Part shown: piece by piece, positions 1 to 56,991 of the stretch
Numbering within the stretch: the stretch's first letter is position 1
Layout: each line of letters starts with the position of its first letter
Assembly (NCBI GenBank): GCA_018780805.1
Contig: JADMJD010000079.1
Span: forward strand, 10,167 to 74,166
From: Rubrivivax sp.
GTDB taxonomy: Bacteria; Pseudomonadota; Gammaproteobacteria; Burkholderiales; Burkholderiaceae_C
Reading direction: 5' to 3'
DNA length: 64,000 nucleotides
Made by a program: the position numbers and the translations under genes
Notes under the pieces: model-generated
What the model saw: the letters and a program-made list of their open reading frames with translations, nothing else
Database searches by the model: none
Told to the model about the DNA's origin: nothing

Positions 1-3000
1 GTGGTGCCGGTGCCCGTGGTCAGCACCTGCAGGCTGGCGGCGCTGATGTCCAGGTCGGTGGTGCCGCTGTCGGAGATGGTCAGCGCCTGCAGGCTGACAC
101 CGCCGGCCGTGGCCAGGCTGCCCAGGCTCAGGCTGCCGGTGGCAACCAGGCGCAGCGTGCCACTGCCGGACGTGAGTGCTGCACCGTCGGCCAGCGCCAG
201 GTTGGCGCCGCTTTGCAGATCGATCGAACCGGCGCCGCTGGTGGTGACGTCACCCGCCGCGGCCAGGCTCAGGTTGCCGGACGCCAGCAGGCTCACCGGC
301 CCGCTGGCGTTGACGGCCGCGCCCAGGCTCAGCTGCCCGGCCAGCACGTCCAGCCGCAGGCTGCCCACGGTGCTGGCACTGGCCACGGCAAGGTCGCCGC
401 TGCTGAGTGTGAGCACCGCCGCCCCCCCGGCCTGCAGGCCTTGTTGCGCGGCCAGGGCCACGGCGGCACTGCTGCCATCGGCAGCCAGGCGCTCAGCGGC
501 CACGGCCACCGCGCCCAGGCTGAGCCCGGCGTCGTCGGCCAGGAAGACCGCACCGGTGCCCGCCACCGCGGTCAGCGTGCCGGTCTGCAGTTCCAGTGCA
601 TTCGCGCCGCTGCCGATGCTGCTGCCGGCCGTCAGGCGCACCGCGGCGGCGACGACGTCCACGGCGCTGTCGCCGTCGGCATCGCTGTCCAGGATGCGGT
701 CGGCCAGCAAAGCGGCGTTGGCCGTGCCGGCGCTGATGCTGACACCGACGCCGGCCAGCGTCAGATCGCCCGCGGCACTGAGCAGCAGGTCGCCATTGTT
801 CGTGGCAAGCGTGGCGCCCAGGCTCAGGTGGCGGCCAGCCTCGGCGACGATGCTGCGGCCAGCGGTGTCGGTGCCGATGGTCGCGCTGGCCAGCACATCG
901 CGGCCCGCGACCAGGCCCAGGTGGCCGCCGGTGCTGCGCACGGCTGCGGCCAGGCTCAGGTCGGCCGCCGAACCCATGGCGGCCAGGCGCAGCGGCCCGG
1001 CGGCGAGTGCCGCACCGCCCGCGGCCAGGCCCAGGCTGCCGGTGTTCGTGAGGATCAAGGCGCCGGCACTGACGAGGTCCGACAACGGGGTGTCACCCGC
1101 CACCTCGGACACGCTGCCGTCGGCCGCGACACGGGCGATGGTGGTGGCCGCCAGGGTGTCGATCAACAGGCTGCCGGTGTTGGCCAAGTAGAGCCCGTCG
1201 GCCCCGGCGCTGGCCACGAGCTGGCCCACGGCCAGGTCCAGCGCGTCGCTGCTGCTGCCCAGGCCGCCACTGCTGGCCACCAGGCGCAGGCGGGCGGCGG
1301 TCACGTCGACGGCATCGTCACCATCGGTCACGGCCGTCGCCGACAGGCTGACCGTGCCGGTGCCGGCATCCAGCGCCGACAGGCTCAGCACGCCGGCGCT
1401 GGCCATGCGGGCATCACCACCGCCGGTGCTGGCGCTGCTGCCGGCCGCCATCGTCAGCGCGGCGCCGGCTTGCACATCCAGGTCCGCACCGCCGGTGAGC
1501 AGGCTGCCGCCGGCCGCCAAGCTGAGCGTGCCTGCGGACTGCAGCGACAGCACACCACCACCGCTGTCCACGGCCGCGGCGATGTGCACGGCGCCGGCCT
1601 GGGCGACCAGCCGCAGGGCACCACCGTCGCTGTCGACGGCCGCGTCCACGCCCAGGTCGCCGGCCAGGCTGGTCAACACCAGCGGCGCGGCGCCCAGCGC
1701 GCTCAGGCCGCTGCCGCTGACGGCCAGGGCCGACAGGCTGCCGTCGGCCGCGACGCGGTTGACGTTGAAGGCCACGCTGCCCACATTCAGGCCGTCGCTT
1801 TCGACCAGGTGAACGCCCCCCGCCGAGCTGCGGGCGGCCAAGGTGCTGACCGCGATCTCCAGCGCATTGGCCGCGCTGCCCAGACCGGCACCGGCCTGCA
1901 GCCAGACCTGGGCGGCGCTGAGGTTGATGTTGCTGTCACCCGTTGCATCGGCGTCCAGCAGCGCAGCCCCGGCGACCAGGGCGATGTCACCCCCCGTCGC
2001 CACGAGGTTGGCCACCGTCAGCGCGCCGCCGGCCTGCAGGTGCTGGCTGGCGGCGGTGCTGCCGACACCGGCGGCCATCACCAGATCGGCCGCAGCGAGC
2101 AGATCGACGCTGCTGCCGGCCACGGGCGCCGACAGCGTCAGCTGGGCCGCCGATTGCACACTGAGCGCAGCACCAGCCGTGAGGCCTGAGCCGACCTCCA
2201 GCGCACCGGCCGTCGTGGCCAGCAGCGCGGCGCCCGTGGCCGCCACCGTGGCGCCCGCACCGATCTGCAGCGCGCCCCCGCTGCGCAGCACCAGGGCCGC
2301 GCCGCTGTTCAGGCCGGCCAATGCGCTGTTGATGCGCGGGTCGGTGTCCAGCGTGCCATCGGACAACACACGCACACCGGTGGTCTGCGCCAGCGCCACC
2401 ACCTGCAGCGCATCGGCTTCGGCCAGGTACAGGCCGCCGCCCACGGCGCCCGCAGCCAGCTGCGCCACCTGCAGTTGCAACGGCACGCTCGCCGTGCCGG
2501 CGGCACCGGCCGTGGCGGCCAGGCGCAGGGCGTCCGCGGTGAACAGCGCTCCCGCGCTGCCTTGCCAGGACGCGGCCGAGAGGTTGATGTCGCCGCTGCC
2601 GGCGTTCAGGTCGTCCACCGTCGCCGCGCCGATGGCGAGCAGGCGCATGTCACCACCGGCCGTGCTGGTGGCCTGGCTGAAGGCCAGCGCTGCGCCCGCC
2701 TGCGCATCGAGCGACCCACCACCACCGACGGCGATGGCCGCCGAGGCCGTGAGGTCGCCGGTGCTGATCAGGCTCAGGCTGCCGTCCAGCGTGGCCAGCG
2801 CGGCGTCGATGTTCAGCGTGCCGGCGGCCGTGAGGCGCGCGTGGCCCACCGCGGTGGTGGCGACGGCACGGTTCAGGTCCAGCGTGCCGCTGGCGTCCAG
2901 CACCAGGGGGCCGGCGGCAGACAGGCCGGCCAGCGCGGCGTCGGCGGCCAGGGCACTGGCCGTGCCGTCCGCGGCCACGCGCTGTACCGCGGCGCCAGCC

Positions 3001-5522
3001 ACGCTGTCCACCGCCGTGAGGCCGGCCGACAGGAACACCGCGCCGCCCGCCTGCACCGCCACCGAGGCGGCATTGAAAACCAGCGCCTGCGCGCCACTGG
3101 CCACCGCGCCGCCGGCCGCGATGCGCAGCGCACCGGCCACGACATCGGTGCCCGGCGCAGCCGCCAGCGTCACGGCGCCACCCGCCTGCAGGCTGACGGT
3201 GCCGGCGCCCGCATCGGCGCGGCCAAGCTGCAGGGCTGCGCCGGCCTCGGCACGTTGGGCGCCACCTTGGGTGAGCAGGCGCACATCGGCGCCCATGCCG
3301 AGGTTGCTGCCGGCACGCAGGTCCAGCGTCTGGCCGCTGGCCGCCGCGCGCACGTCAAAGGCCGCGCCCTGCAGCAGCAAGGCCTGCGAAGCCAGCAGGC
3401 TGATGCTGCCACCCAGCGTCAGCACCTCGGCACCCAGGCTCAGGTCACCCGCCAGCGCCTGCAGCAGGATGTGGCCGCTGCCGCTGGCTTGTGCGCGCAC
3501 CGCGCCACCGACCGACAGCGTGCCGCTGCTGGCCAACACGGCGATGGCGCCATCGCCGGAACCTGCGGTGCCCAGCCCGGTGACCACGAGTGCCGTTTCG
3601 TCGACGAAGAAGATGCCGCCGCCGGCCGTGGTGCTGGCCTGCAGCGAGCCGACGGTGCCGCGCAGCGCGGCGCCTGCGGCACCCACGCCGCTGGCGGCTT
3701 CCAGGGTGACCACGGCCGCTTCACCCCGCAGGTTGGCCGTGTCGCCGGCCAGGCCGTCGAGGATGCGGCCACCGGTGGAGCGCAGTGTGATGGCGTTCGC
3801 GGCTTCGATGATGCCGATGCTCAGGTCGCCCGCGGCCTCGATCTCGACGATGCCGCTGGGCCCGGCCACGATGGTGATGCCGCTGAAATCCAGCATGCCG
3901 CCAGAGACAAAGGCCACGGTGCCGCCGTTGGACGTGACCGCCGCGCCGATGGCCAGGTTGCCGGTGCCAGCGGCGAGCGTGATGTTTGCTGCGCCGGTGG
4001 CGGTGATAGCCGCCGCTGCGGCGGTGGTCAAGGCGTCGGCGGCCGAGAGCAGCACCGTGCCGTCAACGACGTTGATCGGCGCGTTCAACACCAGATCAGA
4101 ACCGGTGCCCAACGCCTGCAGCGTGAGTGCGCCGCTGCCGGCGATGGCGATGCCGGCACCGGCGGCCAGCGTGATGCTGCCGTTGTCGGCCAGCAGCGAT
4201 ATGTCGTTGGCCCCGCTGCCGGCCGCTTGCGAAAGGCTGACCACGGTGACGGCGCCGGTGATCTGCGTGTTGTCGAAACGCGTGGTGTTGCGCGCGGTGT
4301 TGATCTCGATGGCGATGTCGCCGGCACCGCTGTTGCTGGCCTGCAAGCTGTTGGTCTCGACCGAGTCCAGCGTGATGCCGGTGGCGGCCGACACCACCAG
4401 CAGCGGCGTGCGCAAGGCTTCATCAACGCGGTTGTCAGCACCTGCATCGGCCTGCACCACGCTGCCGCCGCTGCTGACCAGGCTGACGCTGTCGGCCTCG
4501 ATCTCGTTGGCCAGGTTGATGTTGCCGCTGGCCTCCAGCGCCAGGCTGTCGCCGGGCCCCAGCCGCAGCATCGCGTTGGGGTCGCTGTAGTCGCTGACGG
4601 TGATCGTGCCGCCACGCAGCACGGCAGGGTCGCGCAAGCTCACGCCGTCCAGGGCCGTTTCGGCGCCCACCGTCATCGCGCCCTGCCCGGTCTGGCCGAT
4701 GGCGATGCTGGAGAAGCCGTCGGCGAAGGCCCGCATCTCCGCGGTTTCCAGGTTCAGCACGCCCGCGGTGGCCGCACCCACGGGCGACAGCAGCGCCGTG
4801 GCCAGGCCGGGCGTGGCAGCGCGCAGGGTCAGCAGGCCGGTGCCGCTGAACAACTCGTCGCCCATCTGCAGGTCGATCTCGTCGGCCTCGATAGTGACGT
4901 TGCCTGGTGTCGTCGCCAAGCCGAGCTGCAGTTCGACCGCCGCTTTGAACACCACCTGCGTGGCGCCAGTGATGTTGAGGCTGCCGCCGTTGCGCAGCGT
5001 GATCTGGTCGTTGAAGGTGATGATGCCGCCGGCGTCGATGGTCAGGTTGCCGTCGACTATGAGTTCGCCCCCAAAGGTGACATCTTCACCGGCCACGACC
5101 GTTAGACCGTTCAACGCGTCTCTACCGTCCCCCTCTTCAACTGCACCAAAGAATGTGACATTGCCCCCTGCCACGACCAGTAACGTGTCGGTACCCGAGG
5201 AATGACTCACGACATAGTCAGTCGCATCGTCCCCTATCCGAACGTTGCCTACAGTTGCCTCGATACGCCGATCCCCGTCTACCTCAATCGATGTCTGTAT
5301 CGAGCTGATGTTGCCCGTTGCCACAATCAGGTCTGTGCTCAAGACGAAGGGCAGCCCGCTCAACGGCACGATGACGTCCTCATCCGCCTGCGGCGCCAGC
5401 GCCATCAGGCCTGCAGTCAGCGGGTCGGCCGACAGCAGCAACCGGGCCTCCAGGGCCTCCACGCGCCAGGCTTCGCGCAGTGCGCGTTGGAGCTTCGAAG
5501 CCGGCGTGCGGTCACAGTACAA
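1..5522 (-). CDS. Second giant LEPR-XLL-leader surface/adhesin-like protein, beta-helix-like repeats; 3' end runs off the window (>1,840 aa); not in the supplied ORF track
   Basis: Translated by hand: TTG at 5522-5520, GGAGG 6 nt upstream (5533-5529). Reads MYCDRTPASKLQRALREAWRVEALEARLLLSADP... The frame was read fully over 5522-4981 and spot-checked at 3001, 1201 and 1-40 (...DISAASLQVLTTGTGT) with no stop. The track lists no minus ORF in this frame, consistent with no stop inside the window. Codons are strongly G/C-ending outside 5050-5340. Confidence 0.9.
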   Translation of the reverse strand, partial: MYCDRTPASKLQRALREAWRVEALEARLLLSADPLTAGLMALAPQADEDVIVPLSGLPFVLSTDLIVATGNISSIQTSIEVDGDRRIEATVGNVRIGDDATDYVVSHSSGTDTLLVVAGGNVTFFGAVEEGDGRDALNGLTVVAGEDVTFGGELIVDGNLTIDAGGIITFNDQITLRNGGSLNITGATQVVFKAAVELQLGLATTPGNVTIEADEIDLQMGDELFSGTGLLTLRAATPGLATALLSPVGAATAGVLNLETAEMRAFADGFSSIAIGQTGQGAMTVGAETALDGVSLRDPAVLRGGTITVSDYSDPNAMLRLGPGDSLALEASGNINLANEIEADSVSLVSSGGSVVQADAGADNRVDEALRTPLLVVSAATGITLDSVETNSLQASNSGAGDIAIEINTARNTTRFDNTQITGAVTVVSLSQAAGSGANDISLLADNGSITLAAGAGIAIAGSGALTLQALGTGSDLVLNAPINVVDGTVLLSAADALTTAAAAAITATGAANITLAAGTGNLAIGAAVTSNGGTVAFVSGGMLDFSGITIVAGPSGIVEIEAAGDLSIGIIEAANAITLRSTGGRILDGLAGDTANLRGEAAVVTLEAASGVGAAGAALRGTVGSLQASTTAGGGIFFVDETALVVTGLGTAGSGDGAIAVLASSGTLSVGGAVRAQASGSGHILLQALAGDLSLGAEVLTLGGSISLLASQALLLQGAAFDVRAAASGQTLDLRAGSNLGMGADVRLLTQGGAQRAEAGAALQLGRADAGAGTVSLQAGGAVTLAAAPGTDVVAGALRIAAGGAVASGAQALVFNAASVAVQAGGAVFLSAGLTAVDSVAGAAVQRVAADGTASALAADAALAGLSAAGPLVLDASGTLDLNRAVATTAVGHARLTAAGTLNIDAALATLDGSLSLISTGDLTASAAIAVGGGGSLDAQAGAALAFSQATSTAGGDMRLLAIGAATVDDLNAGSGDINLSAASWQGSAGALFTADALRLAATAGAAGTASVPLQLQVAQLAAGAVGGGLYLAEADALQVVALAQTTGVRVLSDGTLDTDPRINSALAGLNSGAALVLRSGGALQIGAGATVAATGAALLATTAGALEVGSGLTAGAALSVQSAAQLTLSAPVAGSSVDLLAAADLVMAAGVGSTAASQHLQAGGALTVANLVATGGDIALVAGAALLDADATGDSNINLSAAQVWLQAGAGLGSAANALEIAVSTLAARSSAGGVHLVESDGLNVGSVAFNVNRVAADGSLSALAVSGSGLSALGAAPLVLTSLAGDLGVDAAVDSDGGALRLVAQAGAVHIAAAVDSGGGVLSLQSAGTLSLAAGGSLLTGGADLDVQAGAALTMAAGSSASTGGGDARMASAGVLSLSALDAGTGTVSLSATAVTDGDDAVDVTAARLRLVASSGGLGSSSDALDLAVGQLVASAGADGLYLANTGSLLIDTLAATTIARVAADGSVSEVAGDTPLSDLVSAGALILTNTGSLGLAAGGAALAAGPLRLAAMGSAADLSLAAAVRSTGGHLGLVAGRDVLASATIGTDTAGRSIVAEAGRHLSLGATLATNNGDLLLSAAGDLTLAGVGVSISAGTANAALLADRILDSDADGDSAVDVVAAAVRLTAGSSIGSGANALELQTGTLTAVAGTGAVFLADDAGLSLGAVAVAAERLAADGSSAAVALAAQQGLQAGGAAVLTLSSGDLAVASASTVGSLRLDVLAGQLSLGAAVNASGPVSLLASGNLSLAAAGDVTTSGAGSIDLQSGANLALADGAALTSGSGTLRLVATGSLSLGSLATAGGVSLQALTISDSGTTDLDISAASLQVLTTGTGT

Positions 5523-8500
5523 GGCTGTCCTCCCAGTAGTCGAAGCGGTCGCTGCCCAGGCTGCCAAGGCCAGTGGCCGCCGGCTGTTGTGATGCGCTGC
5601 CCAGCACCCAGCCCTGGGCCAGGCGGCTGGCCAGGCCGAAGGCCTCGACACTCAACCCGGCGTCGATGGCCATCGCGGGGTCGATGGTGGCGCCGGGCAG
5701 CGGGTCGGCCGTCAGCGTGGCCAGGTAGGCGGCGGCGGCGCTGCCGGCCGGCAGGGCGCGGTCGCCATCCAGCGCCGCCAATGCGCTGCGGGCCCGGGTG
5801 TCGCTGTCGCGCAGCTCGGCCAGCGGGCGCAGAGCGTTCAGCCAGGCGGCGGCCGCAGCGGCATCGCCACTGCTCAGGTCGCCACCGCTGGCGGCGCGGG
5901 TGCTGGGGCCCTGGGCCTCGATCTGCTGGTGCAGCACACCGTCTTTCAGCAGGTTGTAGCGGGTGCGGCCATCGGCGGTGGAATCGCGCAGGATCAGGCC
6001 ACCGTCGGCGTCGATGTCCACGCGGTTGGCCTCGACGTCGATGGCGTCCATCGCCACCGACTGGCCGGCGCCCAGCACCGGGCCCAGGCCGCGCATCACC
6101 AGCCAGGCGGCCCGCACGTTGGTGGCGCTGTCCCGGTCGGCGTCGCTGATGCGCCCGCCGCTCACCAGCACCAGGCCGGCGCTGCCCGTGTCCAGCTCGG
6201 CGATGGCCAGGTCGCCGGCGGCGCACAGCGTGAGTTCGTGGTTGCCGGTGGCCAGCAAGGCGCCCGGGGCCATGCTGATCGCACCGCGGCTGGTGAGCAC
6301 CACGCTGGCGTCCACACTGCCGCGGCCGCTGAGCTCGATGCGGCTGCCGGTGGCGTTGAGCTGATCCAGCACCAGGGAAGACAAGGTGGCGGTGTCAATC
6401 ACCAGCGCGCCACTGCTGGCATCGCCCAGCTGCAGGCTGCCAAAACCTTGCAGCGCGGCCAGCGTGCCAGCGGTCAGCACCAGGCCATCGCCCGCAGCAC
6501 CGACGGTGAGGGTGGCACCCGCCGTCGTGGGCGTCAGCAGCACCTGCGCATCGGCGCTGCCGCGCACGCTGCCGTTGAACTGCAAGGCGTCGGCACTGAG
6601 CACCAGATCGCCGCTGGCCAACACCACATCGCCCAGCACGATGCGGCTGGCACCGGTGATGGTGAGGCTGCCGCCGTTCAGCACGATGGGGCCGGTGAGC
6701 GTGACCACACCACTGGCTTCGATGACGAGATTGCCGTTGAGGGTGACCTGGGCCAGCGTGACGTCGGTGGCGCCGTCGATCAGAAGGCCGTCCAGCGGTG
6801 TGGTGGCGCCGATGGCACCGGTGACCACCACGGGCGCGCCGTCGGCGTGCAGCTCCAGCCGGTCGGGTGCACCGCCCGGGTTGCCGTCGATCGCACCGTC
6901 GATGAGGATGGCGCCGTCCCCCGTGCCTTCGCCGGTGCCGGCCCGCACGACAAAGTCGCCCTGGATGCGCAGGTCGCTGTCGATCTGAACCGGGCCTTCC
7001 TGCGTGATGTCGTCGCCGCGCACGTCCAGCACGGCCCCGTCACCGCCGGCTGACAGCTCGATGTGGCCGCTGCCGTGGGCGGTGATGGCGCGGCCGTCAC
7101 TGGGTGTGCTGCCGTCCAGCAGGTCGATGCTGCCGTCCAGCGTGCGCAGGCCGATGCTGCCGTTGCCGCTGGTGGTGATGAGGTCGCTTTGCAGGAAATC
7201 GAGTGCCGCGCCGGCCACACCGTCGCTGCCGACACGGTGCACGCGCACGGCCACGTCGTGCACGCGGATGGCGTCGGCTTCCTGCAGCCAGATGCCGCCA
7301 GCCCCGGCGCGGGCGCTGACGGTGCCGGCCTGCGTTTCCACGCGTGCTGCGCTGCTGCCGATGCCTTGGCCGGCCTGCATCAGCAGGCCTTCGGCCGCCA
7401 CGCGCTGGCCGCTGCTGCCGATGATCCAGCCGGCGGCCACCAGCATCAGGTCGCCCGGTGTCGTGACACGGCCGATCTGGATGTCGGCCGCGGCTTCGAC
7501 CAGGGCATCGCCCAGCGTCGCCAGCAGGCCATCGCTGCCAAAACGCAGGCTGCCACCGGCCGAGAGCACCACCGTGCCGGCCGCATCGCCCGTGCCAACC
7601 AGGCCGTTCAGCTGCAGGTCACCACCGGCGCTGGCGCTCAGGTGGCCGGCTTGTGTCTGGGCGCTGCCGTTGATCTGCAGTGCACCGGCGCTGGCCAGCA
7701 GCAGGTGGCTGCTGCCACGGGCTGAGGCTGAACCATCGAGCGTCAGGCTGCCACCACTGGTGGCGACCAGCGTGCCGGTCGACAAAACCGTGCCGCCGAT
7801 GCGCAGCGAGGACTCGGCCTGCAGCCGCAGCGCACCTGCTGTGTCCAGCGTACCAGCCAGTTCCAGCGTGCTGGCGTTGATGGCGGCATCGCCGGCCACG
7901 GCCACCTCACCGCCCAGCGTCAGGGCCTGTGTGGCGGTCAGCACCAGGCGCCCACCGACTTGCATGTCACCGCCCAGGGCGATGGTGGAGGCGCTGGCCA
8001 GCAGGTCGGCCCCGGCGGCCAGGTGGCCGGTGGCCAGCAGATCACCCAGCGCGGTGAGGTGGAGGTCACCAGCGGCTTGCAGGTCGCCATTCAGCGTCAG
8101 CGTGCTGCCGGTGATGGCCAGGTCGCCGGCCGCCACGAGCGCAGCGTCGATCAGGATGTCGACGCCACTCAGCGTCAGGCTGCCGCCGGCGTTGACCGCG
8201 GCCGCGACCTGCAGCGCACCATCGGCCGCCAGCGCGATGGCGCCCCCGGCCTGGAGAGGTGCGCCGATGTCCAGCGCCGCGCCGCTGAGGCTCAGATCGG
8301 TGCCTGCCGTCACAGCGCCGGTGATGCTGAGCGTGCCGCCGCTGGCGAGCTGCACCGCCCCGTCGGCGCTGGCGCCAGTGACCGTCAGCGCATCGACGTC
8401 ACTCAGCACCAGGGCGCCGCTGCCAGCTGCAGCCTGCAGGCTGCCGGCTTCGGTGCGCAGGCCATCGCCCCAGGCACCGATGCCTGCACCGGCGCTGAGG

Positions 8501-11500
8501 ATCAGGGCCTGGCCGCGCAGGTTCACACCGTCGCCGCCAGCATCGCCGATGTGGCCACCCGCCGTGACCGTGATCGTCGCGACCGCGGCATCCACCCCGC
8601 CCAGCGAGATGTCGCCGGTGGCCTGCAACTGAATGGCGCCGCCGCCACTGCGCAGGCTGCTGTCGGCGGCCATCGTCAAATCACCGGCCTGCACTTGCAG
8701 CACGATGCTGCCGCCGGCCGTGGCCACCACCGCATCAGCCGCCAGCGACAGGTCGCCGCTGGTGAGCACCAGAGACAGATCGCCACCGACGCTGAGGTCG
8801 CCCAGCACCAGGTCCCCGTCGCGCACGGCTTGCAGGCTGCCGCCCACGCTGCCGCTCAAGCCGCTGGCGGCCAGATCGAGTGCACCGCCGCCGCTGGCCA
8901 GCACATCACCCGCCACCTGCAGCGTCAGCGCGCCGCCGGCCTGCAGGCCGCCGAGCACGGCGTCGGTGAGCGCCTCTGCCGCCAGCGTGCCATCGGCCAA
9001 CACCACCGCCACGCTGATGGGACCGGCGCTGCCGATCAGCAGGTCACCCGCCGTCGTCAGGCTGACGGCGCCGCCGGCCGACACGGCCAGCACATCGGTG
9101 TCGAGCTGCACCGTGACCGCACCCCCGGCCTGCACACGCAGCTGCGTGGCCGTGACGGTGGACGACGACAGCACCGCGCCGCCGGCCACCAGGCTCAGCT
9201 CGCCGGCGGTGATGCCACCCACCGTCAGGTCGGTGCCAGCGGCCAGGCGCACATCGCCGCCGCCGCTGGCCAGCACGGCCGCGGCGTCCAGCGTGATGCT
9301 GCCGCCGGCGCGCAGGTCCAGCGTGTTGCCCTGGGTCAGCACGCGGCCGGTGGCGCTGACCAGCAGCGCGCCTTCGGCGACGATGCTGATGGCGCCGGTG
9401 CCGGCGTTCACCGTGGCGTTGATGTCGATGTCGCCCGGCACGGCCGGGGCGGCGCTGTTGGCGGCCAGCAGGATGTTGCCGCTGCCGGCGGCCACCACGT
9501 CGGCGTCCACGACGAAACGGCCTTCGTGTGTGTTGCCGTTGCTGATGACGATGGCACCGTCCACGCCCGAGGTCGCGCCCGAGACGCTGCCCACGGTGCC
9601 GACCACCAGGCCGTTGCCTTCGGCCAGGAAGATGCTGCCGGTGTCGCTGCTGGCGGCCAGCACGTTGACCGCGGTTTCGATGGCGGCCGTGCCGCTGCCA
9701 ATGCCACCTTCGGCCACCAGGCTCACCTGGCCGGCGGCGACGTGCACCACACCACCCGTGTCGGCGCCGACGATGGCACCGCCCGTGCTGACGCTGACGG
9801 TGCCGGTGCCGGCTGAGAACTGGCCGATCAGCACACCGCCCATGGCCTCGATGCGCTGCGCACCGCCGGCGCTGACCAGGCGCGCATCGGGCGCCATCAG
9901 CAGCTGGCCTCCGGCCACCACCTCCAGCAGCGATGCGGCATTTTTGGTCTGCGCGCGCTGGCCGGCGGCGAGCTGCACGTCACCGGTGGCGAGCAGGCGC
10001 AGGTCGCCGCTGTCGCTGACCACGTTGGCCTGCAGCAGGATGTGGGCGCCCGCGCCCAGCACCTGCAGTTGCACCCCGCCGTCGGTGGCGGCGCTGCTGG
10101 TGATGGACTGGTTGACGGTCAGGTCGCCAGTGCGCAGCGTCACGACAATCCGGCCACCGTCGGCCGCCAGGCCGCCGCCGACGAAGCTGAGTGCGTCTGT
10201 TTCATCCAGGAAGATGCCACCGATGCCGCTGTTGCCGCTGCTGTTGCTGGCGCCCACGGTCTGCAGCGTGGTGCGCAGCGCGGCCATGGCTTCGCCCACG
10301 CCCGTGGCCGCGGCCAGGCGGGCGGTGGGCGCGCGCAGGTTGGCCGCGTCGCCCGTCAGGCCGTCGCGCAAGGCCCCAGCAGTGCTGGTGAGCGCGAGGC
10401 TCTGGTCGGCGCTGACGATGGACAAGCGCATGTCGCCCACCGACTCCATCACCACCCGGCGTGCATCGGTGCTGGTGCTGCCGAGCGACGAGACCGTGGT
10501 GCCGTCGTCCATGACCAGGCTGCCACCGGCCGTGATGGTGACCAGGCCGCCCGCGGCCACGACATCGGCGCCGATATGCACATCGCCGCCCGTGGTGATG
10601 TTCAGCGCCCCGTTGCCGGCCAGCGTGATGCGGCCGGCGCCCGTGGTGCTCAGCGCGCCCGCCAGCTCGAGCGTGAGGCCACCGCTGGTGGTCTGCAGGG
10701 TCTGGGCCAGCAGCAGATCGGGGGCCTGTTCGGCCGCGCCGGCTGTGGCCAGCGTGATGCTGCCACTGCCGGCCGTCCACACACCGGAGCCAGCCGCATC
10801 GACCACCAGGCCACCGGCCGCAGCGCGCAGGTCGATGTTGCCGCTGCCCTGGGCCGAGAGCTGGGCCAGGCGCAGCACCGTCAGCGTGCCGTCGAGTGCC
10901 GCACTGCTGAAACGCAGCGTGTCGCGTGCGGCCAGCTGGCTGAAGAAAAAGTCGCCGTTGCCGCGGTTGACGGCGTCCAGCGTGCCAGCCTCCAGGCTCC
11001 CAAGCGACGCGCCTTCCAGCGTGTCCACCGTCAAGGCTGCGGTGCGGATGGCCTCGCCCAGCAGGCCATCGGCTGCGGCGTCGATCTGGCGCACGCTGCT
11101 GGTGGCCGACACCAGGTACACGGCATCGGCTTCGATCTGGTTGGCGATGGTGATCACGCTCACGGCGTCCAGCGTCAGCGTGGCGCCGGCGCCCAGGCGC
11201 AGCACGGCGGCGGCCTGGCTGTAGTCGGCCACGGCGATGGTGCTGCCGAACAGCGCCACGCTGTCGCGGAAGGTCAGGCTGTCCGCGTCCACCCGCGCGC
11301 CGACCGTGACGGCGCCGCTGCCCGCGAGCGCGTGGCCGTCGTTGCCCTGGTGGCCGATGACGATGCGGCTGAAGCCGTCGCCGAACGTGCGGATGTCGGC
11401 CATGTCGAGGTTCAGCACCCCGTTTGTGGCCACGCCGGCCGGCGACGCCACCGCGATGCCCTGCGACACCGTGGTGGAGCGCAGCGTGAGCAGGCCGCTG

Positions 11501-14500
11501 CCGGCCAGCTGCTGCTCGCTCATCGACAGGTCGATCTCATCGGCTTCCAGCAGGATGTCGCCCGCGCTGCCGTCCGCGGCCGTGCCCTGCAGGTTGACAC
11601 CGCCGCGCAGCAGGATCTGCGTGGCGCCGCGGATGATCAGGTCGCCGCCGTTCAGCAGCGTGATCGAGCCGTTGAAGGTGACGAGGCCGGTGGCGTCGAT
11701 GATCAGGTCGCCGTCGACCACGATGTCCTGGTCGAAGCTGACGTCACCCGCGCCCTGCACGCGCAGCAGCTGCAGCGCGTCGGAGCCTTCGTCGCCGCCA
11801 CCGATGCGGGACGCGACGCGGATGTTGCCGGCGCTGGCCAGCAGCGTCAGCGTGTCGCGGCCGGCCGAATCGCCACCCAGGTAATGGGTGTTGGCGCCGC
11901 CCAGCAGGATGTCGCCGCCCTGCGCGGTGATGACACGTTCGCCGTCCACGCGGATGGAGTCGAGCACCGTGACGTCACCGGCCGTGGCAGTGACATCGGC
12001 CACCACAGCCGTGGTGTCGCCAGAACCGAAGATGGTGAGCGACGGTGCCAGGAAATGTGCGCCGATCATCACGTGGCCGCCGTCGCCGTTGGTGAAGAAG
12101 ACCACGTCGTCGCGCATCGTGATCGCGCTGCCGTCGGCCGTCATCACCATCACCACCTGCGCGTTGCCGTTGGCACCGAAGACCAGCTGCGCAAAACCGT
12201 CGCGCAGGTTGGCCATGTCGGTGGCGTCCAGGTGCATCGCGCTGCCATCGGCCATCGAGAACACCCGCGCGCCGTTGCCGCCGCTCAGGCTGCCCAGCAC
12301 GATGCTGCCGTCGGCGGCGATGGTGCGGAAGCTCAGCGTGCCGCCGGCGCTGCGCATCGGCGCCAGGATGTCCACGTCGTCGGCGGCCACGCCCACGTCT
12401 TCACCGTCGGCGTCCACGGCGGCATCGATCACCTGCTTGCCGGCGAGGCTGATGACGTCGGTGCTGCCGGCACGAGAGCCGCTGCTGCCGCCGGTGCCCA
12501 GGCTCACGGCGCCTGCGGCGACCACCGCCACGGTGTCGCGTTCGCTGCTTACCGCGGCCACGCTGCCGGCGTTGACGAAGATCGCCAGCGGGCTGTAGCG
12601 GAAGCCCTCGACCGCCTCGCCGACCTGGTTCAGCGCGGTCAGCGTGAGCTGGCCGCCCACGGTCTCGACAAAGGCGCCGCCGGCACGTCGCAGGACAGTG
12701 CCGTTGCTGATGCCCTGGAAAACTTCTTCGTCAGGTGTCAGGTTGGCGGCCAACACCAGGCCGGAGTTGGCAAAAACCTCGAAGCGGCCTTTCGAGAGCG
12801 CCCACTCGAGCGACGCGGCAAAACCGTCCGCGCTGTCGAAGCCGCGCCATTGCGCAGCGGCCAGGTCGGTGAGGATGGAGCCTTGCACGGCGCGCAGCAG
12901 GATGGCACCGCCGATGTCGTCGCTGCTGTCGTTGGCGTTCACGCCATCGGCCAACACCAGGTCGCCGGCCTCGGCCGTGAGCGTGATGTTGCCGCCACCG
13001 CTGACCACATCCGCGCCGATGAACAAGCTGCCCTGGCCGGCGTACAGCACGATCGGCCCGCCGGTGGAGACGACACCGCTGCCACCGTCTTCAGCGCCCA
13101 GCACGGTGAGATCCCCACTGCGGGTGACGATCCGGACGGCGCTGGTCTGCGGCGTCGGGCCGTTGCTGTTCTGGCCCTCGGCGTTCTGGCGGATGGATTC
13201 GATGTCCAGACCATCCACTTCTTCGATGGAGATGTCGCCGCCGCCGCTGTTTTCCAGCCAGAGCGAACGCACCTGCACTTCGAGCGGGTTGCCGTCGTCG
13301 CCGATGCCGATGGTGCCCCCGATCCCGGCATCGGAGGTGATCACCAGCCGCGCCAGCGGCGCGACGATGTCGATGTCGCCTTCGCCCACGTCGACCACAC
13401 CGCCTGTGGTGATCACGACATCGGCGGTGGACGTGGTGCGCAGCTTGCCGAGCAGGATGGAATCGGTGGCCAGCAGCGTCAGCGTGCCGCCCGGGACGAT
13501 GCTGTCGTTGGGGTCGGGATCACTCACCCGCGCGTCCACATAGGTGGAGGCGTTCATCTGCAGGCCGCCGGCACCGGCGTTCAGCAACACGTTGCCGCCC
13601 AGCGTTGTGATGTCGGCCAGCTCGTTCATGAACAGGCCGTTGCCGGCGACCACGGTGACAGCGCCGCCCACCGTGGTGAGCGCCTGGCGCAGGTCGATCA
13701 GGCCGGCGGTGGACCGCAGGCTGATGGCCGCACCACCCAGGGTGGCCAGCGGTGCCTCGATCAGCAGATCGAGGCCGGCCGTGATGTCGATGGCCGCACC
13801 GGTTGACTCCAGCCGTGTGATGGTCAGGCCGGTGGCATCCACGATGGTGACGGCACCGCCAGCGCGGGCGTCCAGCGTCGTCGCGTCGATGTCGGCCTGG
13901 ACCGTGGTGCCGGCTTGCAGCACCAACTCACCGATCAGCGCCGTGCCGCTGAGGGTGATCGAGCCGGTGGCGATCAGCGTCATGCGGCCCACGCTGCCGG
14001 TCAGGCCCGACAGGTCGAGGTTGCCGTCGACGGTGATCGTCACGTTGCCGCCGTCCATCACCAGGCGGGTGATGTCCAAGTCCTCGCGCGCCAGGTTCTG
14101 TTCCAGCGCAAAGTCGCTGAACTGGCCGCTCGGGAGGTTGTCGCTGTCCAGCGTGACCTCGAGCACGCCGACGCGGGTCTGCAGGTTCAGGTCGTCGCCG
14201 GCTGCGACGTTGAGGCGCTGCGCCGTCACGGTGTCGCCCAGCGTCAGGCTGTTGCCCGCGCTCAGCGTGACGATGCCGGTGCTGCCGGTATTCAGTGCAT
14301 CCACGACCACCAGCGACTCGTCGGCACGCAGCGTGATGGTGTCGCCGGCGTGGGTCTGCAACAGCACCACCGACAGGCTGCCGCCCAACGCGCGGTAGGC
14401 CACGGTGCCCGGGTCGCGGTCCGGCAGGATCAGCACCGAGTCACCGTCCAGCGGCACCTCGGTGGCCAGGCCCGCGCTGCGCGAACCGGCGCCTACCGCA

Positions 14501-20500: not shown

Positions 20501-23500
20501 GCGCCGGTGTAGGGGCTGTCGGAGCCGTTGCCGTAGCTGCCCGGGTTCCAGGCCCAGTTCGGGTCCCGCACGACGTCGTCGCTGAAGTCGCCATCCAACC
20601 CGGCCACGGATTGACCGGTGATCTCGTAGTAGCGCTGGCCTCCGCCGCCGTAGTTGACGGTCCAGTAGGCGGCGCTGTTGTCGCCGTCGATGCTGACCCG
20701 GTTGGGGTCCTGCAGGTTGGGGTCGTCAATGTTGCCGCTGTTGCGCAGGAAGGAAGCGGACTGGGTGTACTGAACCTTGCCGTCGTCCTTGTAGCGGCCA
20801 ACGAGTTCACCCTTCAGTTCGAAGCTGTCGTTCGGATCGTTCGGATCATCTTCGTCGATCTGGTTGGCGTACTTCCAGGTGCCGCCGGTGCTCTCGCCGT
20901 CGCGCGACGGGTCGTTCACCAGGAACCTGGCCTGGTCGTTGGTGGCCACGGCCAGGATGTCTTCCTGCGCGCCCTTGGGCATCAGGACAAATTTGTCGCG
21001 CCAGCCGCTGATGTCGATGAAGTAGATCTTGTCGACGTTCTGCGGGTCGTCCCAGGTGGGCGTTGCCGCGGTGGCGGTGACGCTGCCGTTGAGCGTGACA
21101 TGCTTGACCGCGGTGTTGTACCCAAAGTCGTACAGCGGCTTGTAGCCCAGGCTGTTCATCACCGCCCAGCGCTGCGCATCGTTCAAGGCCTGGAACGGCC
21201 GGTAGTTCTGGTTGGTGTAGTCGCCGCTCGGAATGCCGGCGCCCGTGACCTGGCGGCCCGGGTTGAACTCGTCCCCCGCGTTGGACCAGTTGATGCTGGG
21301 CAGGTTGTTGCGGCCGTCGTTGGAATAGTCCAAGCCCTCGATCAGCACCTCGCGGAAGCTGTTGGTCTTGGGGTTGTAGTACCCGATCTGCGACAGCGTG
21401 ACGTTCATCGTCCAGTATTCGCTGCCCGCCTTCACCAGCTCGGTGCCCACCTGCTCGGTGACCTCGGTTGTCTCCCAGGTCACGACCGGCACGTCGACGG
21501 TGCCCACGGCCTCCTGCCGGTAGCCGGTGACGATCTCGACGTCCTGGTTCTGCGTCGTGGTGATCTGGATCTTCAACTCGCGCTCGGGCCCCACGGCGGT
21601 GCCGGCGTCCAGCGTGATGTCGCCACCAGCCACCAGGCGCAGGTCGCCGTCGGTGTCCAGCAGGCCGCGGCCGAGGATGGTGATGTCACCACCAAACACA
21701 TCGGCGGCGCCGATCGCGGACACGCCGTTGCTGTCCACCGCCTCCAACGCGTCGCGACCACGGCTCAGGTCCACGCCCACGTGTACGTCGATGCGGCGGC
21801 CGGCCCCCAGCGTGCCGCCGATGAGCACGCTGTTGGCGGCCGACAGCAGCAGGCGGCCGTCGGCGCCCTTGGCCTCGACGAAACCGTCGATCTGGATGTC
21901 CGGTGCCATCAGGTGCACCAGACGATCGGCCTGCACGATGGTCACGCGCACGGGGTCTGAGACCAGGTCGTCCGGGGCCACGTAAAGGCGCGTGCGGGCC
22001 TCCAGGCGCGCGGTGGAACCATCCGCGACCGCGAACACATGGCTGCCGTTGAGCAACGAGAGGTTGCCGCTGGTGATCTCGACGCTGTCGGCGACGTTGA
22101 TGTCGCGCCGCAGCGTCAGGTCCCCGGCGATGGACTCGATGACCAGGGTGGACACCTTGCCCTGGTCGCCCAGGTCGCCCTCGCCCGACAGCTGGCCGAC
22201 CACACCTTCGATCAGGATGCTGTCGATGGCGCCCAGCAGGATGTCGCCGCCGGCATCGGTGTCCAGCGTGCCGCCGGACTGGCGCTGGCCGCCCACCAGC
22301 ACCAGGGTGTCGACGACGATGGCGATGCCGGTTTCGTCGGTGCCACCAAACACCTCCAATCGGTCGGCCGCCGACACCAGGCCACCGATGCGCACCTGGG
22401 CCCGCGACTGCACTGCAACGTCGGCACCGGCATCCGCGTAGGCCGCGTCGGCGGGGCCCTCGTCGCCGGCCCGCACGAAGCCCATCAGACGGATGTCGCC
22501 ATCGGCAAGCAGCGAGACCAGACCATCGCCGAGCTGGTCCGCTGCCAGCGGCCAGCGGCCGTCGCCCGAGGCGTCGGCCACGATGCGGCTGCCGGTGGTC
22601 ATGTCGATGCCCATGCCGGCCGCCGAGGTGCCCGCGCTCAGCGCGATGGTGCCGGTGGCGGCCAGTTCGCCGCCGATGCCGCTGCCGCTGTTGCCGATGA
22701 CGATGTCGCGTTGCGCGGCCAGGTCGATCACCGCCCCGCGGCCGGACCAGGCCCAGCTGCTGTCGGCATCGGCCGCGTCGGCACCGGCGCGCAGTGCGCC
22801 GCTGATGCGCAAGGTCTGCGCCTCCAGCTCGATGCGGCTGTTCTCGCCGGTGCTGTAGAGCTGTCCCGCATCGCCCACCGTGATGCGGCCGCCGGCCGTC
22901 AGGCGCACCAGCGCATCGGCCTCCAGCAGTGCGGCGTTCGGGGTGGCGTTGCGGGCACCGATCTCGATGGCATCGCCCGCCCGCATCGTCAGGCGCTGTC
23001 CAGTCGCCTGGGCGCTGAGGCTGGTGTTCCAGGCTTCGATGTCGTCACCGGCGGTGGCCAGCACCGAGCCGGCGAACTCGAAGTCGCCGTGCAGCAGCAG
23101 GTCTTGCTCGGCGCGCAAGATCACCTCGTCGTCGTAGCTCGCGGCCGTGGCGCCCAGGCTGCGCACCGTCCCGGCCACATCGACGTTGACACCGTAGAGC
23201 TCGATCAGGCCGCCGGTTTCCAGCTGGCCCGAGGTGGCGGCGATGGTCAAGGTGCCGGTCTGGCTGCCGATCTCCAGCCGCTCCAGGCCCGGGCTGCCGG
23301 TGCCGACCTCGCTGTCGATGACCACGTCGTTCAGACCGGTCAGCACGATGCGCGCACCGGCGTCCAGCGTGCTGAGGCTGCTGGTGCCCACCGTGCGCAG
23401 GCTGACCTCGCCCGCCGCCTGCACCGTGCCGGCGCTGATGATGATGTTGCGCTGCGCCGTCAGCTTGCCCCGCAGTTCCAGCGTGTCGGCAGCGGTGATG

Positions 23501-26500
23501 ACGATGTCGGCGTCGCTGCCGCGCGCGATCAGCTCGCCCTCGAAGACAGCAGCGCCGTAGGGCGTGAGCCGCATGCCGCCCGAGAGCGTTTCCAGCAGGC
23601 CGCTGGCGGTGAGCCGCACGGCGGGCGCACCGGCGTCGGTGGTCGAGGCGTACATCTCGATGGCCGTGTGGGCCCGGATCGCGTTGCTGATGACGATCTC
23701 ACCACCCGCAGCACCGGCACGGCCCAGCTGCACCACGGAGCCCACCCCGATGGCGTCGATGGCGTAGGCGCGTGCGGACGCCAGCGCGCCGCCCGTCGGC
23801 GTGCTGCCCACCTGCGTGAAGCCCAGGCGCTCGGCACCACCTTCGTTGGCCGCCGCGATGCTGAAGGCACGCGAGCCCGTCAGCAGCAGCCGGCCTTCGT
23901 CCAGCCGCACGGTCGGGCGGTCGGCGCTGGTGAGCGTGGCCGGGGTGTTGAGTGCGGGCGAGCCCTGCGTGGCGCTGACCACAAAGCTGGCCGCCAGGAT
24001 CGCGGCCTGCAGGTCGTCGCGCAGACTGGCCAGGCCCTGGTTGTCCTGGGTGCTGGCTGCAGTGACCAGCACGGTGGCGGTGGCGGTCCAGCTGCCCATC
24101 ACCACGGAAATCTGCAGCGCGGCGTCGGCCGTCAGGCGGCCGTTGGCCAATTCGGCAAAGCCGTCGGCGATGAGCTCCTGCGTCCAGGCCGGCGGCAGCA
24201 CGGCGAGGTCACCGACGGCCGACAACAGGATCGTGCTGTCGTCCATCCAGGTGCTGAGCGAGACGTTGCCGCCAAGCACCATGCCATAGCTGGCAAAGGG
24301 ATCGTCGGGGTCGTTGACCGGCGCTTCGTAGCCGCCGCGCACGTCGATCGTGCGACCAGCCACCACGTCGCGGCCCAGGCGCACCTGCTGCTCGGCCGTG
24401 ATGGTGATGCTGGAGTTGCCAGCGAAGTTGCGCAGCGTAGAGCCCAGGTAGAAGCCGGCGGCGTCGTAGGCATCCACCAGTTCGCCACCGGCGACCAGCC
24501 AGCCGTTGACGACGGCATCCTGTTGGGCCTGCACGAGGATGTCGCCATCGGGGTCGGACACGATCACCCGTGCCGCGCCCGGGATCAGCACGCCGATGCC
24601 GTCGGCATTGGCGCCGCCGATCAGCGCGATGTGCATGTTGGACAGCACCGTTGCGCCCACCTCGACGGTGGCACCACTGACCGCCCGGGTCAGGCCACCC
24701 AGCCACAGCTGTCCCTGGGCCGCCAGCCGCACGGTGGACGCTTCGTCCGACCAGGCGATGCTTTCGCTTTCCAGGCGGCCGGTGTCGTCGTTGAAGACCT
24801 GCGTGACGGTGCCGCCGGCGATGATGCGGCCCGCCAGCGTGATGCCGCCGACGATGTCGGCCTCGACCCGGCCACCGCTGCCATCGCTGGTGAGGCCAGC
24901 CGCCGTCAGCCCCCCGGCAGAGCCCAGCACGAGGCCGAAGCCTTCGTCGTCGGCGCCGGGTGCACCGGTGGTGGACAACAGTACCGCCTGCGACGCCGCC
25001 ACCGCGGTGTCGATGCGGATCTGCTCGCCCGCGATGAGGGTGACCGTGCTGTCCGGCCCGGCCCACTGGATGTTCTTGTCGCTGATGCTGCCGCCCGCCA
25101 CCAAGGCGCCGAGCAGGTGCACGTCGCGGGCGCCTTCAATGTGGATGTCGGCACCCGGCGCGGTGGTGTTCAGCGTCGACGACGGATGCACGTAGACGCT
25201 CAGGCCCTCGCCGGGTTGGCCCAGGCTCGGGGCGCCACGGCCGATCAGCGTGATGTCGCCGTTGACGTTGGCCTGGCCTTCCCAGTAGACCCAGCGCTGC
25301 GATTCCAGCACGAGGTCGGAGCCCGCGCCCAGCAGGTTGAAGTTGCCGCGCACGATGATGTCGTCCACCGTGCTGACCACAAAGTCGGCGTCGTCCTGCA
25401 ACGTGTTGACCGTGCCGGTCAGCAGGAAGCCGGCGCCGCGCTGGCCGAACAGCGGGTGCAACTCCTGCACGCGGATCTCGTCTATCACGCCGTCCAGCGT
25501 CTCGTCGTAGGCGTAGACCAGGTAGCGGTTTGCGCCATCGTCGATCAGCCAGCGGTTGGGCTCGGCCGTCCCGGCACCGGCGTTGGTGTACTCCAGGCCC
25601 TGGACAAAGCTCGTGCGCACCGGCTGGTCGGCGCCGGCCTTGTAGAACACCGGCAGGTTGTATTCGGCAAAGCCGCTCTGGCTGAGCACACGGTACTGCT
25701 GCGCCGCGGTCATGTCGTCGAAGGAGGTGCCCGCGTCGGGGATCTCCAGCAGGCTCCACACCACGTTTTCGTTGGTGTAGTCCGAACCTTCGGTGAAGCT
25801 CAGGCGGTAGCGCTCGCTGCCGGCGCCCGGCTTTTCATAGACCAGGCCGCTCCAGCGTTCGTAGCCCAGCGTGGCCAGCACCACATCCTGCTGCGCCCGC
25901 GTCATCTCGGCAAAGGCGGTGCCCAGTGCCGGCTTGGCCACGCGGCCCCATTCGATGTCGTTGATCAGGAAGTCGCCGTTCACGCCCTCCTGCAGGTCGT
26001 CGACGACCTGCTTGTCCGGCGTCGGCGCCGATGGGTTGAGGAACAGCTGCCGGTCGACCTCGGTGTAGCCGAGCATGGCCAGCACGACGTCGCGCTGGGT
26101 GGGCGTCAGGTCTTCGAAGCTGGCGTCGGCAGCAGGCGCGGGCACACCGCCCCAGTCGATGGTGCGGATGTCGTAGTCGGCGCCACCGGCCGTGAAACCC
26201 AGTGTCAGTTGCAGGCCTTCGGGCGCATCGGCCGTGTAGAAGGCCGTGCCGTCGATGACCTCGTAACCCAGGGCATGGGCCACGACACGCTTCTGATCGG
26301 CAGTCAGCGACTCGAAGCTGGCGTTGTCGGCCGGCGCCCCCGCATCGCCCCAGAAGATGTCGCTGTTGCGATACTGGGTCACCCGGCCTTCGGTGAAGCC
26401 GGTGACGAGCTTTTCGCCCGACGGGCCGTCGTAGTTGTAGAACGTGACCTGGTCGCCCTTGCCTGCGGCGTACAGGCCGTCGATGTAGGCCACCACCACC

Positions 26501-43422: not shown

Positions 43423-43451
43423 TTCATGCCGGGCCCAAGCTCACCCATAAT
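43423..43451 (+). promoter_or_regulatory. Candidate sigma70 promoter for the sapC-tolC cluster
   Basis: Good -10-like CATAAT at 43446-43451; weak -35-like TTCATG 17 nt upstream. Confidence 0.25.
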
Positions 43452-43482
43452 GATTTGGAGGCCCAGTCCCCAGAGGAGTCCC

Positions 43483-56950: not shown

Positions 56951-56991
56951 AACCTGCTTCGTTCATCCCTTCTGATCCCGGAGCCTGCTGC

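Follow-up and report, generated by a model that had tools for sequence, protein, structure and literature searches.

The closest described counterparts of the locus treated here are Cag_663 (36,806 amino acids, aa) and Cag_665 (20,647 aa) of Chlorobium chlorochromatii, adjacent LEPRxLL giants with sapC and tolC as neighbours (bioRxiv 10.64898/2026.03.19.712371). Our subject is a pair of minus-strand genes in a 64,000-nucleotide stretch of DNA from Rubrivivax sp. (assembly GCA_018780805.1, contig JADMJD010000079.1, positions 10,167 to 74,166), the whole of which is called the window below: gene 1, which encodes a protein of 12,602 aa, and gene 2, which begins inside the last codons of gene 1 and runs past the window edge. 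The locus is a LEPR-XLL gene pair, of a family already known, and it shares with the Chlorobium giants the N-terminal LEPRxLL domain of ~24 aa, the very long, hemagglutinin-like and beta-rich bodies, the side-by-side placement of two genes and the adjoining sapC/tolC genes. It differs in that gene 2 is of ~2,600 aa and overlaps gene 1, whereas the Chlorobium pair is separated by a tolC gene, and in that the operon of the window adds two membrane-fusion proteins (MFPs), an M50-MFP fusion, a SecA-like ATPase and an Lcl_C protein, as judged from the published description of the Chlorobium pair.

Three general systems also invite comparison. In coupled overlapping gene pairs, as here, the genes lie on the same strand, the start of the downstream gene precedes the upstream stop by a few nucleotides (nt), with the Shine–Dalgarno (SD) sequence inside the upstream coding sequence. 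A start so placed, with its SD in the upstream open reading frame (ORF), is the classic geometry of termination–reinitiation. Unlike in those pairs, the upstream ORF in the window spans 37.8 kb, and both SD and start are laid over a conserved C-terminal protein motif, which constrains the two reading frames alike. With the type I secretion of giant adhesins (LapA, SiiE, RTX) the locus shares very large, repetitive proteins that have a conserved extreme C-terminus, as well as neighbouring genes for a TolC-like factor and for adaptors of the HlyD type; it departs from that system in lacking an ABC transporter in the operon of the window and in having a conserved N-terminal leader, an M50 protease and a SecA-like ATPase. 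No RTX repeat block was found near the C-terminus of gene 1: the only HemolysinCabind match, in the middle of the protein, stays under its cut-off of 23 with 22.3 bits, and there is none toward the C-terminus. Two-partner secretion (FhaB, EtpA, HxuA) has in common with the locus a long predicted beta-solenoid, and EtpA, the FHA secretion domain and HxuA are among the best, if non-significant, fold matches of gene 2; a weak Fil_haemagg match, below cut-off, lies in the C-terminal part of gene 1. The N-terminus of neither gene matches a two-partner secretion domain in Pfam or NCBIfam, no Sec signal peptide was detected there, and the neighbouring genes scanned include no Omp85-type TpsB partner.

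Taking the evidence as a whole, we put at roughly three in four the probability of the account in which gene 2 is a second LEPR-XLL gene, distal in an operon headed by the giant, which starts at TTG 5522, is likely to be served by ribosomes that finish gene 1, and may have its product exported together with that of gene 1. On this account an annotation gap is corrected, the window opening inside a real gene of ~2,600 aa in the same operon as the 12,602-aa gene. LEPR-XLL giants can come as a "long + short" paralogue pair, conserved in Rubrivivax, Pelomonas/Roseateles and related Burkholderiales, and in one clade the conserved tail of the long partner has been co-opted as a ribosome-binding site.

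The gene 1/gene 2 junction

The junction is made up of the following features.

5512 to 43320, minus strand: gene 1, the 12,602-aa LEPR-XLL giant, with a TTG start at 43320
2 to 5522, minus strand: the first 1,840 codons of gene 2, LEPR-XLL family, with a beta-solenoid body; the gene runs past the window edge
5515 to 5544, minus strand: gene 1 tail codons FDYWEDSLVL, an instance of the family's C-terminal signature
5529 to 5534, minus strand: SD sequence GGGAGG of gene 2, formed by the gene 1 W-E-D codons TGG GAG GAC (5535-5527); the same in the related loci L001, L002 and L004
5520 to 5522, minus strand: TTG start codon of gene 2, composed of the last two bases of the gene 1 Leu codon CTT and the G of the codon that follows
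5512 to 5522, minus strand: overlap of the two genes, 11 nt, read as CTT GTA CTG TGA in the gene 1 frame and as TTG TAC TGT GA in the gene 2 frame

On the minus strand, gene 1 ends in TTC GAC TAC TGG GAG GAC AGC CTT GTA CTG TGA, that is, F-D-Y-W-E-D-S-L-V-L-stop. An earlier note on this DNA had proposed that the TGG GAG GAC codons of this tail supply a GGAGG to gene 2 and that the genes overlap by 11 nt, and both points are confirmed from the sequence, the ribosome-binding element being in full GGGAGG at 5534-5529, with a spacer of 6 nt to TTG 5522. Gene 2 lies in the +1 frame relative to gene 1, the stop codon of which (TGA, 5514-5512) comes 8 nt past the gene 2 start. The same note had both genes starting at TTG with a well-spaced SD; this stands for gene 2, and gene 1 has the TTG with a weaker SD (GAGG, 7 nt). 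On the minus strand of the 64 kb, GGAGG occurs just 34 times, and GGAGG followed after 4–9 nt by a start codon at just six sites. A scan of the gene 1/gene 2 boundary found no promoter-like and no terminator-like site. As a piece of gene organization, the junction is an ordinary overlapping start, an arrangement common in bacteria.

A second combination of GGAGG and TTG is yielded by the LEPR motif codons CTG GAG GCC CGG TTG (5441-5451, minus strand). Because initiation there would destroy the LEPR motif, this site is taken to be a codon by-product.

Gene 2 as a member of the LEPR-XLL family

The domain by which gene 2 is recognized lies close to its start.

5415 to 5468, minus strand: LEPR-XLL N-terminal domain of gene 2, residues 19-36, WRVEALEARLLLSADPLT; NCBIfam NF012209

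Judged by domain content, homology and predicted fold, gene 2 is a genuine gene of the LEPR-XLL family. NF012209 scores 23.5 bits on gene 2 (residues 19-36) and 31.4 bits on gene 1 (residues 15-32) against a cut-off of 17, and the LE-x-R-x-LL motif has only two copies in all six frames of the window, one per gene. An exhaustive HMMER search returned 122 relatives, 37 of them with E below 1e-30 and the best, P0003, at E 1.7e-263. In an AlphaFold2 model based on an eight-row alignment (pLDDT 85, pTM 0.82), a disordered stretch (residues 1-55) is followed by an all-beta solenoid (residues 56-620). Foldseek searches of the PDB with this model brought up matches of the beta-helix class only (EtpA, IgA1 protease, RsaA, FHA secretion domain, HxuA), none of them significant (best E = 0.065). 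Gene 2 has what defines the family, namely the domain above cut-off, the motif in its proper position and a long beta-rich body.

The six orthologues of gene 2 measure 2,526-2,874 aa, and P0003 (2,611 aa) is 80% identical to it across residues 1-1840. Gene 2 probably has a full length of ~2,600 aa by comparison with these relatives, with about 70% of the gene inside the window, and is probably not the "second giant gene" for which it had been taken. An exact 60-mer of window positions 1-60 had no match in the genome or metagenome contig collections. Nor is the gene "hidden": related public contigs already have it called, TTG start included, and its absence from the ORF list that accompanied the window is a technical artefact, as the listing leaves out ORFs that run past the sequence end.

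The alignments place the translation start of gene 2 at TTG 5522. Residues 1-621 of P0003 align to residues 1-620 of gene 2, the first 44 being shared, including the literal "L" for TTG, and gene callers picked the equivalent of TTG 5522 in three independent contigs (L001, L002 and L004). Counted from this codon, the LE motif stands at residue 24, within the family range of 19-43 and at the median position, residue 24, of the 33 leader-bearing sequences (31 family members and both window genes). In front of the motif, the core of the leader is a basic stretch followed by R-x-x-R-[DE]-x-[FWY]-R-x-E, with an aromatic residue at −5 in 32/32 sequences (W in gene 2), E at −2 in 29/32 and R as the usual residue at −4 and −8. 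The codon underneath the start is telling as well. CTT accounts for 11 of the 1,366 Leu codons of gene 1 (0.8%), and this rare codon is kept at 5523-5521 in the window and in L001, L002 and L004, all of them overlap-type loci, the DNA of which is just 66-87% identical to that of the window. Its retention despite rarity argues that the TTG 5522 start is under selection, of which it would be a clean signature.

The choice of TTG itself can be explained without a throttle on expression, because a Leu codon in this register supplies TT through CTT alone, and only TTG fits the conserved Leu (CTT followed by G). The earlier suggestion that TTG starts limit the output of these costly proteins does not hold, and TTG as a conserved throttle was rejected: dual coding forces TTG here, and GTG and ATG starts occur as well among the orthologues of either gene.

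Long shadow ORFs accompany both genes. Opposite the gene 2 region lie plus-strand shadow ORFs of 876-915 aa; a further one of 5,366 aa (22039-38139, plus strand), antisense to gene 1, is a high-GC artefact.

Related loci and the C-terminal tail

Comparison across loci has shown, at the level of sequence, that the overlap is conserved within one sub-clade and the tandem arrangement more widely. In L001-L006, the contigs that encode the orthologues P0003-P0008, a giant gene lies directly upstream in every case (12,628 aa in L001; in L002-L006 the calls are partial, 3,423 to 10,670 aa long, and cut off by contig or locus ends). A scan of species-representative genomes added tandem loci in a Rubrivivax metagenome-assembled genome (MAG; L010), in Pelomonas parva (L011, which holds the junction, the start of the giant being found in L029), in P. 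lactea (L012) and in Burkholderiales MAGs (L014 and L018), and L013, where the downstream frame is broken and the giant starts in L030, is a possible tandem case. About ten Burkholderiales loci thus combine a giant with a paralogue of ~2,600 aa, and most other LEPR-XLL genes have no giant upstream.

The earlier note had asked whether homologous loci keep the tandem arrangement together with the embedded SD. The first they do, in L001-L006, L010-L012, L014 and L018; the second is true of some of them only. At the overlap type of junction (window, L001, L002 and L004/L010), an identical TGG GAG GAC-N6-TTG comes with an 11-nt overlap, TGGGAGGAC-N6-TTG having been found in L001, L002 and L004/L010, which makes only three lineages besides that of the window; across them the exact 11-nt overlap is kept at just 45-65% protein identity. 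At the spacer type, the SD is not embedded and the genes are ~40-75 nt apart: 51 nt with a GTG start in L003, 75 nt with ATG in L005/L014, 41 nt with GTG in L006, and similar sizes in L011, L012 and L018. Among isolates, Pelomonas parva LYH14W and P. lactea DXS20W have the spacer type, and none with an overlap turned up. The three spacers scanned contain no promoter-like or terminator-like site on the same strand. Closer to the window, one groundwater-metagenome run matches the stretch exactly, and a close strain in two runs (X2/X3) of another groundwater study has a junction identical to that of the window.

The tail into which the SD is written belongs to a signature, [F/V/L]-[D/E]-[Y/V/I/F]-W-x-[E/D]-x-L-x-[L/I/V]-COOH, that ends most complete family members and is usually preceded by W/Y-[L/V]-L-G-x4-Q-P. 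The curated NF012209 model does not include this signature, which emerged from the present comparison; in the Pfam and NCBIfam scans that we ran, no model matched it (gene 1 5515-5640, minus strand; P0003-P0115). Checked in the upstream giants of L001-L006, L010-L012, L014 and L018, the tail motif was present throughout, the upstream giants ending in DRFDYWEDSLVL, DRFDYWEDDLEL, DRFDYWDESLAL, DRYDYWEDSLAL, DRFDIWEDDCVL or TAFDIWEESLAL. The gene 2 orthologues P0003-P0008 carry such a tail too (...VEMWDEALSL), with no same-strand gene after them, and gene 2 itself is expected from them to end likewise. Because it is family-wide and also occurs on proteins without a downstream partner, W-E-D is, in the sequences compared, a protein motif, with the SD as an overlay used by one sub-clade. 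The preferred codons of gene 1 are GAG (61%) and GAC (80%), which together with TGG give GGGAGG, so that the ribosome-binding site arises at no extra cost.

A looser tandem occurs in Massilia sp. IC2-278 (L041, 3180-12300), where two LEPR-XLL genes, the first of 2,876 aa and with the tail LLEFWLEDLVL, lie 330 nt apart; the gap holds a terminator-like GC stem and T-run, making this a tandem without operon fusion.

Alternative explanations and the question of coupling

In the reading that we prefer, the giant and gene 2 would form a two-gene operon, the 12,602-aa giant first and gene 2 distal, and would be co-transcribed. Ribosomes that stop at TGA 5514-5512 would likely re-initiate, or help loading, at the SD of gene 2, and, with no untranslated gap between the genes, the distal end of the ~46-kb transcript may be shielded from polarity. 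The LEPR-XLL leader shared by both proteins would then direct them to the divergently encoded export set described below.

Three other explanations question the existence or the extent of gene 2, and all of them seem to us improbable, to different degrees. It might be argued that the gene 2 frame is a high-GC shadow ORF and no gene at all. The frame contains no stop from TTG 5522 down to window position 2, over 1,840 codons, just as the earlier note had read it, and the missed in-frame stop that the note allowed for is not there; but an open frame alone is weak evidence, because the DNA is ~73% GC and long shadow ORFs (876-5,366 aa on the plus strand) are present in the window. GC content at the third codon position (GC3) is no safe guide either and was rejected as coding evidence on its own, one antisense shadow class reaching ~0.89, as high as the genes. 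What separates gene 2 from a shadow is that GC content at the first codon position (GC1) exceeds that at the second (GC2), as in gene 1 (GC1/2/3 0.72/0.57/0.88 in gene 2 and 0.68/0.48/0.90 in gene 1) and in reverse of the shadow ORFs, where GC1 < GC2; with the domain match, the 122 homologues and the confident fold added, the shadow reading, which homology had already refuted, retains a negligible probability. Hardly more credible is the notion that genes 1 and 2 are one gene, which a faulty assembly has cut in two or which a programmed +1 frameshift makes whole in vivo. The overlap and the +1 register of gene 2 would suit it, yet gene 2 begins with a complete LEPR-XLL leader, the gene 1 stop coincides exactly with the family C-terminal tail, the junction recurs identically in an independent assembly of another strain, and spacers separate the two genes at other loci. 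It is less far-fetched, if still quite unlikely, that gene 2 is real and starts elsewhere. Its frame is open upstream to TGA 5654, which makes GTG 5651 and TTG 5567 formally possible in addition to TTG 5522 and GTG 5462, and TTG 5567 would give a 38-residue leader, inside the family range; the earlier note had itself raised ATG 5405. Among these codons an SD is present only at TTG 5522. TTG 5567 is absent from L001 and L002, GTG 5462 (position −3) would delete conserved leader residues, and ATG 5405, lying past the LEPR-XLL motif, would remove the leader that defines the family, all of which, with the kept CTT and the choice of the gene callers, upholds TTG 5522 as that note had it.

More finely balanced is how gene 2 is translated. 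On its geometry, we hold functional coupling of gene 2 to gene 1 translation to be somewhat better than an even bet. Alternatively, the strong SD of gene 2 may recruit most of its ribosomes on its own, the overlap being compact packing with no set dependence or stoichiometry, an explanation to which we assign a lesser but considerable chance. GGGAGG with a 6-nt spacer is strong in its own right, and related loci work with spacers of 41-75 nt and SD-like sequences of their own; against this stand the terminating ribosome, 8 nt from the start in the classic geometry, and the preservation of the exact 11-nt overlap between lineages of such low protein identity. The two modes are not mutually exclusive. 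Several observations weigh against the favoured account, including its part in coupling. Compared with shuffled controls, the 141 nt of RNA that surround the site have the less stable predicted fold (z = +1.59), and with the SD region predicted to be unsequestered, independent initiation is possible and nothing forces dependence on gene 1 ribosomes. The seven related tandem loci with ~40-75 nt spacers, and GTG or ATG starts where called, imply that the overlap is no requirement for the pair to function. No RNA across the junction was found; short contigs from one wastewater metatranscriptome fall within gene 2 (4690-4860) and within gene 1 (5909-6047), and DNA carry-over may account for them. 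The 3′ end of gene 2 lies past the window edge. As to export, the operons of the window and of L007-L009 have no ABC transporter, and the export role of the operon is drawn from co-occurrence only. Coupling as a point of design, as the earlier note would have it, is thus not sustained, given seven spacer loci that keep the tail without the overlap and a site that is not sequestered (z = +1.6); across the loci compared, coupling is no conserved requirement.

Gene 1 and its paralogy with gene 2

The features bearing on the giant and on its relation to gene 2 are these.

43225 to 43278, minus strand: LEPR-XLL domain of gene 1, residues 15-32, NF012209, 31.4 bits
43318 to 43331, minus strand: gene 1 start region, with GAGG (43331-43328), a 7-nt spacer and TTG 43320; in-frame TGA TGA just upstream
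7039 to 11994, minus strand: gene 1 region paralogous to gene 2, gene 1 residues 10,443-12,094 against gene 2 residues 66-1,758; BLASTP 35%, E 1.6e-131
5066 to 5357, minus strand: strain-variable segment of gene 2, residues ~56-152, the first solenoid coils directly after the leader

Gene 1 is confined to TTG 43320 because in-frame stops sit just upstream, whereas gene 1 orthologues start with GTG or ATG. In L001 the orthologue measures 12,628 aa, in Roseateles cellulosilyticus (L007) 12,270 aa. Across all 12,602 residues, Pfam gave sub-threshold matches only (Fil_haemagg and HemolysinCabind).

Residues 870-2611 of P0003 align to gene 1 residues 10,834-12,602, up to its last residue (38%, E 3e-171). 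Together with the paralogy of gene 2 itself, this alignment to the very end of gene 1 indicates that gene 2 is a leader joined to a copy of the last ~2,150 residues of gene 1. A C-terminal stretch of ~300 codons in gene 1 (7361-6418, minus strand) is 71% DNA-identical to the C-terminal part of the gene 2 orthologue (L001 16167-17113), which exceeds the 35-38% overall protein identity of the paralogues and hints at strong constraint on the C-terminal end that they share, or at gene conversion there. At the other end of gene 2, segment 5066-5357 is swapped for ~293 nt of unlike sequence in the close strains (runs X2/X3) and in L001, between flanks that are 81-99% identical.

The divergent gene set and its possible role in export

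Upstream of gene 1 and on the opposite strand lies a set of genes that may form an export operon.

43483 to 44211, plus strand: SapC-family gene, first of the divergent putative export operon; Pfam SapC E 1.3e-71
44183 to 45751, plus strand: TolC-like outer-membrane factor; Pfam OEP E 6e-26, TIGR01844 below cut-off
45756 to 46550 and 46555 to 48456, plus strand: two membrane-fusion genes (HlyD/RND-adaptor type)
48474 to 50621, plus strand: M50-type intramembrane metalloprotease fused to a membrane-fusion domain; Pfam Peptidase_M50 and HlyD_3
50564 to 52411, plus strand: divergent SecA_DEAD-like ATPase gene; Pfam SecA_DEAD E 1.9e-20, start codon uncertain
52443 to 53882, plus strand: Lcl_C-domain protein gene, last conserved operon member; Pfam Lcl_C E 5.6e-53, same position in L007 and L009

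Roseateles cellulosilyticus, Ramlibacter sp. G-1-2-2 and Pigmentiphaga soli have the same set of seven genes beside a LEPR-XLL giant (of 12,270, 3,861 and 16,683 aa, respectively), in no case with an ABC transporter in the set, and both LEPR-XLL proteins of the window are probably substrates of this SapC/TolC/MFP/MFP/M50-MFP/SecA-like/Lcl_C set. The M50-MFP protein matches the NCBIfam daptide-type intramembrane metalloprotease model below its cut-off (E 7e-48), and its N-terminal part shows a weak PqqD-like match (E 0.087), PqqD matches being precomputed for some homologues. The SecA_DEAD-like protein falls far below the cut-offs of all SecA and SecA2 models; divergent SecA_DEAD domains have been noted in giant proteins of Omnitrophota (10.1101/2023.11.21.568195).

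A bolder proposal, as a whole rather unlikely, would make the giant and its short paralogue obligate partner substrates of a TolC-dependent, ABC-less export machine, in which the SecA-like protein serves as motor, the M50-MFP with its PqqD-like, leader-binding part recognizes and removes the LEPR-XLL leader, the W-x-E-x-L-x-L C-terminus acts as a second signal, and W-E-D reinitiation fixes the ratio of the two proteins in the overlap clade. LEPRxLL giants are reported to be transferred between bacterial partners (bioRxiv 10.64898/2026.03.19.712371), which makes their export route worth testing, and the SapC/TolC/MFP/M50-MFP/SecA-like set is a concrete candidate for the exit of such enormous proteins. 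It may be undescribed, as our literature search found no paper describing the gene set and no mechanistic paper on LEPR-XLL.

Other features of the window

Antisense to the SapC gene, a 331-aa shadow ORF (43441-44436, minus strand) is another high-GC artefact. Farther along the plus strand, a cyanophycin cluster occupies 56108-61570.

56108 to 56950, plus strand: S51 cyanophycinase
56848 to 59805, plus strand: cyanophycin synthetase
59651 to 61570, plus strand: second gene with the Mur-ligase-type domains of CphA2

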